Positions 1 to 1,537 of a stretch of DNA of 10,483 bases are shown one piece after another. The notes under the pieces are model-generated. The model had not been told where the DNA came from. It worked only from the letters and a program-made list of their open reading frames with translations, and searched no databases. Source of the stretch: Bdellovibrionota bacterium (GTDB taxonomy: Bacteria; Bdellovibrionota_C; UBA2361; OMII01); assembly GCA_044356215.1 (NCBI GenBank), contig JBIKWQ010000095.1:1-10483 (forward strand). The letters run 5' to 3'. Position 1 is the stretch's first letter. Each line of letters opens with the position of its first letter. The position numbers and the translations under genes are program-made.

Positions 1-209
1 AGTTGATATTCGATTTTCGAGATGGGAAAAAACCGCACCAGACTACGCCAAGGCTACGTCTGGTCCGACAAAAGCCTCGCCGGCCGTAGCTTTAGCGAAG
101 GTCGGAAGTGTATCCAGTGTGATACATTGAGGATTTTTTCCCATCTCGAAAACTCGAAGAGCAGCTCAAGATCCGCTTTCGCAGTAGGGAGGGGTTTTGC
201 CGGCCTTCC
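1..209. mobile_element. Truncated copy A of a dispersed palindromic MITE-like element (IS5-subgroup-like terminus)
   Basis: Reverse complement of 10273-10480 with 7 substitutions and 1 indel over 209 columns by manual alignment. Identity stops abruptly at ...CCGGCCTTCC (209), followed by CTAG (210-213). Internal 19-bp perfect inverted repeat at 14-32/134-152. No transposase ORF in the visible part. Confidence 0.7.
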
Positions 210-213
210 CTAG

Positions 214-248
214 GATAAAAACCCGAGCGCTGTTGGTCAGCGCTCGGG
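214..248 (-). terminator. Rho-independent terminator on the minus strand
   Basis: Perfect 11-bp GC-rich stem CCCGAGCGCTG (222-232)/CAGCGCTCGGG (238-248) with a 5-nt loop, followed on the minus strand by TTTTTAT (plus-strand A-tract 217-221). Confidence 0.8.
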
Positions 249-452
249 CCATGGGCTACGAAGAGCAGAATAAACGCTTAAGGTCCTTACAACGAACCTT
301 AGTTAGTTAAAGGGCAATAAGCGCCGACTATCCCTCGCTGTTCCCACAACGAGACATCGGCAGTAGTCGGTTACCCAGACCACTTTTTTACGCTGAGTTA
401 ATCAGAGCGGCTAATTTGTCCGCCCAGCTAACGTCTCTCCTCGCGTCCGTGT
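217..452 (-). ncRNA. Candidate structured non-coding RNA or leader, family not recognised
   Basis: No long ORF. Bounded by a promoter-like motif (459-487) and a terminator (214-248). Several helices whose irregular pairs read as G-U on the minus strand; GGGA tetraloop; possible pseudoknot 318-323/275-280. Confidence 0.5.
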
Positions 453-458
453 GAGTAC

Positions 459-487
459 AATCTATCAATAAACACCGGTGGTGATAA
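459..487 (-). promoter_or_regulatory. Putative sigma70 promoter for the candidate ncRNA
   Basis: Minus strand reads TTATCA (487-482) - 17 nt - TAGATT (464-459), with an extended -10 TG motif (TGaTAGATT). Confidence 0.4.
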
Positions 488-507
488 TGATCGAGGTTAG
501 GTAGTAA

Positions 508-1395
508 CTACTCGAGCTTTCCCGCCGCGGCATAAACACGAGCCGGTGGCTCTCGTAGGTTCCATACAAGTCCAAAAACAGAAAGTGCCTTTAGAATGTA
601 GTGAGAGATATCGATCTCCCACCAATAGAAGCCCTGACGCTCGGAGCCTGGATAGTAGTGGTGATTGTTGTGCCACCCTTCGCCTAAAGTAATCAAAGCT
701 AACAGCCAGTGATTCCTACTGTGGTCAGTCGATGGAAATCGACGCTTACCGATTAGGTGAGTGAAAGAGTTGATACAGAATGTTCCGTGATAAAGCAGTA
801 CAGTGCTGATGAAGAATCCCCACACTAACATCTGCCAGCCATTCGTGCCGAGGGCTGGGTTTGTGTGCTCAAGTAATACGCCGAGCAGAAAACATCCAAC
901 AGCTAGCAGGATCGGTGGAACCAAATTGAAACGCTCGAGGAGTCGCAGCTCAGGAAACTTTAGTAGGTCCTTAACCAGCTCAAGACGAGGCTCAATAAAC
1001 TGAGAGCTTAATACCCAACCAACATGCGCGAAGTAAATTCCAGATACGATCGGTGAGTGAATGTCCTCTGGTGTGTCGGAGTGTCTGTGATGGTGTCTGT
1101 GGTGAGATGCCCACCAGATCGGACCCTTCTGCGCGGCCGTTGTTCCCAGTACAGCTAGGCAAAATTGAAAGAAGCGACTGGTATCGTAAGAACGGTGAGA
1201 GAAATACCTGTGGTACGCACCTGTGATAGCGAACATGCGAATTACATACAGGGCCAAGCAGACAGCCACAGCGACCCAGCTAACGCCAACCCAGATGGCG
1301 GCGATGCAGGCCACGTGAACCGCCCAAAATACCCCCTGCTTGATCAGGTTAATCCAGTTAAAGTCGTCTTTTACGATCGCGTCGCCGTGGTACAT
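508..1395 (-). CDS. Delta-9-type acyl-CoA/acyl-lipid fatty acid desaturase (OLE1/DesC-like), 295 aa
   Basis: Three His boxes HRYFSH, HHRHHH and GEGWHNNHH, plus hydrophobic membrane segments. Start moved from the track's 1473 to the ATG at 1395 (MYHGDAIV...), which is preceded by the SD-like AGGAAAGGA. Confidence 0.93.
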   Translation of the reverse strand: MYHGDAIVKDDFNWINLIKQGVFWAVHVACIAAIWVGVSWVAVAVCLALYVIRMFAITGAYHRYFSHRSYDTSRFFQFCLAVLGTTAAQKGPIWWASHHRHHHRHSDTPEDIHSPIVSGIYFAHVGWVLSSQFIEPRLELVKDLLKFPELRLLERFNLVPPILLAVGCFLLGVLLEHTNPALGTNGWQMLVWGFFISTVLLYHGTFCINSFTHLIGKRRFPSTDHSRNHWLLALITLGEGWHNNHHYYPGSERQGFYWWEIDISHYILKALSVFGLVWNLREPPARVYAAAGKLE

Positions 1396-1537
1396 GATTC
1401 CTTTCCTAATATATAGCGCGCCTCTATGGTGCCATGTTCCTGATCCTTGAACAAGGAGCTGGGCCCGCCACAATCCTGTAAAGATGAGTTGAAGGGGATC
1501 AGATTAAGCTGTTGTTTACCCCGGATTGGTTTGGTAA

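Follow-up and report, generated by a model that had tools for sequence, protein, structure and literature searches.

The minus strand of the window, by which we mean the whole 10,483-nucleotide stretch analysed here, carries between about positions 452 and 217 a structured RNA whose fold is supported by compensatory changes in related genomes. Comparison of the sequences and of their predicted folds gave good support to the view that this is a new structured RNA family, restricted, as far as the searches reached, to one genus of the Bdellovibrionota. A stand-alone small-RNA gene with its own promoter-like box and terminator is the best-fitting of the three functional options put forward in an earlier note on this DNA, and is a reading that we believe about as readily as we doubt it.

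The window is the entire contig C114 of a MAG (G000; 3.24 Mb, 96% complete), and the closest relatives of its desaturase among database records come from Bdellovibrionota or Bdellovibrionales MAGs from lakes. The RNA lies between this fatty-acid desaturase gene and one copy of a repeated element (Table 1). A BLAST search of the genome with the element yielded 216 segments, of which many were full length and 94–98% identical, and it is probably the cause of many of the assembly breaks in the MAG. The repeat sets in 2 nt past the U tract of the terminator and reaches the contig end, so that anything that came after the RNA in the window is hidden. Both ends of the contig (1–215 and 10270–10480) are inverted copies of the element with terminal inverted repeats, and positions 1–184 were also covered by one RNA-library contig. 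Only one copy of the RNA per genome was found by the covariance models (R1 and R2) used below. A separate observation was that a further desaturase paralogue, 64–71% identical to the desaturase of the window, occurs in almost all genomes of the genus (e.g. G000:C67:12742-13584).

Table 1. Predicted features of the RNA gene and its surroundings, in positions of the window.
Feature	Position	Strand	Basis or remark
Fatty-acid desaturase gene (upstream neighbour)	508-1473	-	PF00487, E = 2.4e-18
TAA-N6-TCAT, version of the T-R-A-N6-TCAT imperfect inverted repeat	487-499	-	candidate activator site, centre about -41.5
Extended -10 box: TG 467-466, hexamer TAGATT 464-459	459-467	-	comparison
Predicted transcription start, A, 7th base past the -10 hexamer	452	-	spacing and conserved pyrimidine-A
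Structured core, eight helices	258-444	-	covariation and covariance models R1, R2
H1	444-439 / 263-258	-	
Purine-rich single strand AGAGAC	433-438	-	directly after 5' strand of H1
H2	432-430 / 399-397	-	
H3	426-421 / 410-402	-	
H4	395-387 / 274-266	-	
H5, GNRA loop 374-371	383-375 / 370-363	-	
H6	361-356 / 328-323	-	
H7	354-347 / 340-333	-	
H8	322-310 / 288-276	-	
Intrinsic terminator: 13-bp stem 250-220, U tract 221-217	217-250	-	
Copy of the ~212-nt repeated element (downstream boundary)	1-215	.	begins 2 nt past the U tract, reaches contig end

Searches of the whole window against Rfam 15 (4227 models) gave no matches at gathering thresholds, and at E ≤ 10 there were still none on either strand of positions 1–700, where ARAGORN reported no tRNA or tmRNA genes. 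The family was thus as unrecognised as the earlier note had taken it to be. In those parts of the literature that were available to us there was no description of the element, the transcriptome papers being on B. bacteriovorus only. The minus strand of 217–487 had a folding energy of -105.1 kcal/mol (z = -5.57; none of 200 shuffles was as good), compared with z = -3.71 for the plus strand of the same stretch. With the promoter and terminator left out (minus 255–450), z was -3.33 and 1 of 200 shuffles was as good. Overall, the analysis supported the earlier proposal that the minus strand encodes a folded, non-coding RNA about 235 nt long. There was no open reading frame of at least 40 amino acids inside 217–496 on either strand, the gaps in the alignments were not multiples of three, which argues against coding, and inspection by eye revealed no conserved start codon for a small open reading frame behind an SD-like motif.

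Covariation was examined in a MAFFT alignment of four genomes that was not fitted to any model (A3). The consensus structure paired 93.0% of the cells in this alignment and 19 of its 58 pairs showed compensatory changes; structures slid along the alignment paired 26–49%, and the covariation score was reached by none of 500 shuffles. RNAalifold, run on the first four sequences, returned 70 pairs, 21 of them with a compensatory change. The corresponding values were 93.3% paired and 30/58 pairs compensatory for five sequences (A4), and 92.0% paired (35–43% when slid) and 52/58 pairs compensatory for 14 sequences (A6), counts that lean towards the structure because both alignments were fitted to the model. 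Since the genomes are kin, the compensatory changes are not independent events, and all of these counts are to be read as strong indications and not as probabilities.

A scripted check located in the window all seven of the pairings that the earlier note had listed, and its structure paired 74.4% of the cells of A3 with 8 of 41 pairs compensatory, less than the consensus on the same alignment. The part that held up consisted of the helix CUCGUUGU/ACAGCGAG, which is H7 (87.5% paired, three compensatory pairs), the long-range closing pair CGAGGAG/CUCUUCG, which is in the same register as H1 (three compensatory pairs), and a hairpin at 425–405 that coincides with the covarying H3. The helices GGGUAA/UUGCCC and CCGACUA/UAGUCGG had no compensatory pairs, and in the second 4 of 7 pairs were broken in some sequence; in place of both, the data favour a hairpin at 383–363 and a helix at 361–356/328–323, in which one pair covaries (A-U twice, G-C twice). 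AAGGUUC/GGACCUU also had no compensatory pairs and competes with H8. The bulge CGCUUA and its complement UAAGCG, which had been read as a pseudoknot or switch, turned out to be the ordinary nested base of H8 (322–318/280–276), which covaries. The GGGA loop that had been taken for a GNRA tetraloop is not conserved (the four loops are UGGGAA, UUGAUA, GAGAAA and GAGAAA). A GNRA tetraloop is conserved in H5 (374–371), where it reads GUAA, GCGA, GUAA and GCAA in subfamily A and GUGA, GCGA, GCGA and GUAA in subfamily B. CsrB-like GGA loops were also considered and rejected, the GGA of the H7 loop of the window being lost in relatives when judged by eye.

The sequences could be split into about six subfamilies (A to F). 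Groups A to D, each folded separately, shared a single layout. Read from the 5' end, it has a closing stem that adjoins the terminator, then a single strand that is short and rich in purines, then a hairpin, and lastly an inner stem with three hairpins. Only two hairpins were found within the inner stem of group E, and group F, a single sequence, was left out of the group-wise folding. Folded alone, subfamily C (eight sequences) had compensatory changes in 18 of 80 pairs and subfamily D (six sequences) in 14 of 69. Of all sequence motifs in the family, the purine-rich stretch near the 5' end (AGAGAC in the window) is conserved most widely: columns G6, A7, G8, A9 and G10 are invariant in A3, and motifs of the GAGAG, AGCAAC and GGGAAGG types occur across all the subfamilies.

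The distribution of the family was narrow. A BLAST search with the RNA in 60 relatives gave three matches, all in the same genus; the core matched in 3 of the 34 other genomes of the genus, each time directly after the orthologous desaturase. Covariance model R1, built from the first four sequences, scored the window at 179.5 bits, matched 5 of 35 genomes of the genus and added G022 and a metagenome contig (L152); on 31 loci with remoter desaturase homologues it returned only the already known L010, L011 and L009. Model R2 scored the window at 146.7 bits and added G003 and G028 (82–85 bits) and G030 (27 bits). Subfamilies A and B are recovered by this model, whereas G030, D and E are matched only weakly and subfamily C is missed altogether; the matches in subfamily D and in G002 were weak (12–15 bits) yet full length and correctly placed. 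When R2 was run with stricter filters over 91 genomes of the order there were seven matches, all in the genus (g1), and none in the 56 genomes outside it.

The orthologous desaturase locus was then compared in 30 genomes of the genus, and the order of desaturase followed by RNA was kept in at least 25 of them. The element was absent downstream of the desaturase in G023, G024, G025, G018 and L093, and in G009 there was too little sequence downstream of the gene for a judgement. G016 has a TCAG variant of the promoter box and aligns with subfamily D, and G026 has, by eye only, what seems to be a shorter variant of the element. Tandem copies of the RNA were found in G032 (L186, 2444–3084) and in a metagenome contig (L092, 2723–3343), the units lying about 371 nt apart, each with a promoter box, and differing from one another by compensatory changes; both copies in G032 have a terminator, and the second copy in L092 runs off the contig end before its terminator.

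The pattern TCAT-N22-TAnnnT was present downstream of the desaturase in 22 of the 30 loci, compared to a chance estimate of about 0.03 per locus. These genomes were picked by this pattern alone, and the triplet six bases 5' of TCAT, which was not part of it, was TGA in 14, TAA in six and TGC in two (n = 22); that is, T-R-A occupies this position in 20 of 22 genomes, with the intervening N6 varying freely. TG stands one base before the -10 hexamer in 14 of the 22, and columns T54, G55, T57, A58 and T62 of alignment A1, which fall in the extended -10 box, are invariant. A simple sigma-70 scan called no promoter at the RNA, and the candidate promoter, which the earlier note had also proposed, is based on comparison, through the conserved box. 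Counted from the predicted start at 452, the repeat would be centred at about -41.5 and would resemble activator cores of the CRP/FNR type. Class II CRP/FNR-dependent promoters have a TGA-N6-TCA core centred at -41.5. The box of the RNA is like these in that T-R-A-N6-TCA precedes the -10 hexamer by 22 nt in 20 of 22 genomes, but unlike them it has short half-sites, with a degenerate left one (TAA) in the window. Among the proteins of G000, at least one has a Crp-type HTH that scores above the Pfam cut-off. A search of this genome for a regulon gave 17 matches to a loose motif, against about 12 estimated by chance, and the strict box motif matched only this site, so no regulon was visible in G000.

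At the other end of the RNA, a strong hairpin with a T-run (-16 to -33 kcal/mol, 5–8 T) was found 190–240 nt after the box in 22 of 22 genomes. In the window it has 13 pairs (9 of them G-C) and a loop of five, followed by five U at 221–217; the 11-bp terminator described earlier was therefore present, but is longer than stated and stronger. Terminator stems show compensatory changes in relatives.

These observations bear on the idea that the RNA is a structured 3' UTR of the desaturase mRNA, serving as its terminator or stabiliser and possibly processed to a 3'-derived small RNA. A terminator scan found no terminator-like site between the desaturase and the RNA (507–452), so transcripts of the desaturase should end at 221–217, and the conserved order of the two elements would be expected of such a UTR. 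However, the box, with its fixed 22-nt spacing, lies at a variable distance from the desaturase end (an offset of 35–206 nt in a stretch starting 15 nt before the end of the desaturase match), which indicates that it travels with the RNA and not with the desaturase stop codon. Furthermore, four genomes have the desaturase without the element, and the tandem units were duplicated together with their own boxes. A pure desaturase 3' UTR, one of the options raised previously, is accordingly not what the loci resemble, and we consider this role quite improbable.

Sequence from RNA libraries hinted at transcription of the stretch, at a level sufficient for assembly. Six RNA-library runs contain 10–20% of the sampled words of window positions 1–1500. 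One 233-nt contig is identical to 210–442 (0 differences), although such contigs are strandless, do not mark ends and may stem from DNA carry-over; no other contig of that run fell on the stretch. Contigs from two other studies cover 259–433 and 257–420, beside pieces of the desaturase, and in a fourth run that was compared only parts of the desaturase were covered. Positions 451–500 had no contig cover in all four runs, and lack of cover was not counted as evidence. As the contigs lack strand and ends, and RNA libraries may hold DNA, expression is indicated only as a hint.

In 19 of the 30 loci the RNA is followed on the same strand by a gene for an AI-2E-family permease (PF01594). This arrangement of box, RNA, terminator and permease on one strand would be explained if the RNA were a cis-acting leader of the permease, similar to an attenuator or riboswitch, with the box as the permease promoter and the RNA setting passage through the terminator; in the window, the inserted repeat and the end of the contig would then have severed the permease from the RNA. 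We regard this role as possible but rather doubtful. In eight genomes (G017, G002, G030 and the subfamily C members G010, G011, G019, G029 and G032) the permease, judged by inferred start codons, begins about 13–30 nt past the U tract, a spacing too short to hold a promoter of its own and one that agrees with a leader. RNA and permease are missing together in G023, G025, G024 and G018, and no locus has the permease without a form of the element, where G016 and G030 were assigned by alignment or model and G026 by eye. Terminated leaders would also appear as short RNAs, so the RNA-library contigs are consistent with this role as well.

Other properties of the RNA are not readily reconciled with a leader. 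Folding of 20 sequences without the 3' half of the terminator (simple MFE) gave no conserved antiterminator: the 5' half of the terminator was free or locally paired in about half of them, and in the others it paired with differing upstream segments, mostly at the extreme 5' end. The terminators are strong (-16 to -33 kcal/mol with 5–8 U), the duplicated unit takes in the promoter box, and the drift is so fast that R2 misses all of subfamily C, which would be unusual for a ligand-binding core. In three groups the conserved 5' purine motif seemed, on inspection by eye, able to pair with the permease leader, but this idea was dropped, as the complementarity was no better than in shuffles (z from -2.31 to +0.92 in 16 genomes; in 1 of the 16, at most 5 of 200 shuffles were as good).

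The element also persists where the permease does not: G003, G028 and G031 keep the RNA with no AI-2E gene within 612–1500 nt downstream. A search with the G006 protein detected no AI-2E orthologue in G000, G007, G028 or G031; G000 has only two AI-2E paralogues, one of which was compared, at 20% identity, G027 has only a fragment of the permease, and in G003 a copy with 50% identity lies elsewhere, where a contig begins. These absences are weakened as evidence by the incompleteness of the MAGs (83–96%) and by contig breaks at the locus. Two further observations at these loci are that in L011 (G007) the terminator is immediately followed by an almost perfect palindrome of about 46 nt and then by an unannotated reverse-strand open reading frame with no Pfam match, and that L022 has, about 250–330 nt past its desaturase, a sequence which we take to resemble the core of a SAM-I riboswitch.

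Across the genus the RNA-adjacent permease is 31.7–43.8% identical to the G006 protein, whereas the desaturase is 71–91% identical to that of the window. Judged by these sequence identities, the module of RNA and permease is evolving far faster than its desaturase neighbour, or is exchanged. A more specific form of the leader role is that of a new signal-responsive leader, in which an activator-driven, shape-conserved RNA of about 190 nt would gate terminator read-through into an AI-2E permease in bacteria of a predatory lineage; we think this unlikely. Compared with known terminator-type riboswitches and attenuators, the RNA is similar in that a promoter, a structured RNA of about 190 nt, a terminator and a transporter gene lie on one strand, with a short distance from terminator to start in several lineages, but it differs in having neither a conserved antiterminator nor a sequence core across subfamilies, and in surviving without the gene. 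In the literature accessible to us in part, we found no paper joining AI-2E or perM permeases to a riboswitch.

A divergent 6S-type RNA, which would bind the RNA polymerase holoenzyme, had also been suggested. The length of about 190–235 nt and the paired 5' and 3' ends are similar to those of 6S RNA (RF00013), and RF00013 had no match in G000 at E ≤ 0.001, in a search that was positive in only 5 of 14 control genomes. However, RF00013 did not match the locus even at E ≤ 10, the fold supported by covariation branches at two junctions, one three-way and one four-way, and has five hairpins, unlike a rod with a central bubble, and the RNA is confined to one genus, with 0 of 56 other genomes of the order matching. 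We therefore hold a 6S-type function to be very improbable indeed.

Taken as a stand-alone small-RNA gene, the locus would work as follows. Polymerase would start near 452, a start site predicted from the extended -10 promoter, and this promoter would probably depend on an activator at the T-R-A-N6-TCA repeat, whose centre lies at about -41.5. The transcript would fold closed, H1 joining its 5' end to the segment just before the terminator and enclosing the H2/H3 hairpin and the inner stem H4, which in turn would hold H5 with its GNRA loop, H6/H7 and H8. Intrinsic termination at 221–217 would then free an RNA of about 235 nt, and where a permease closely follows, transcripts reading through the terminator would double as its leader, so that the stand-alone and permease-leader roles may coexist. 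The shape, the box, the purine-rich strand and the terminator are kept while the sequence drifts, which suggests that the RNA is read by its fold, most likely by a protein partner; a seed-pairing small RNA or a metabolite aptamer fits this pattern of drift less well.

To our knowledge, very few regulatory RNAs have been described in the Bdellovibrionota. The RNA resembles orphan lineage-specific small RNAs of the Rfam type in being intergenic, in its promoter-like box, intrinsic terminator and covarying multi-helix fold, and in its narrow range, and it is unlike the Rfam orphan motifs in matching none of the 4227 models and in an unusually fast divergence of sequence with the architecture kept. 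It thus provides a new RNA family of an uncultured freshwater genus, with a box, an architecture and a terminator, that is usable for the annotation of MAGs and for RNA family libraries. With its shape kept and its sequence turning over rapidly, beside a divergent permease and a conserved desaturase, it offers a useful case for RNA evolution. If the RNA does act as a permease leader, it would offer a fresh approach to the AI-2E transporters, a family that is poorly understood; and if it represents a new class of leader, it would sense a ligand or protein so far unlinked to any RNA switch, and the RNA and its unusually divergent permease would evolve together as one module.
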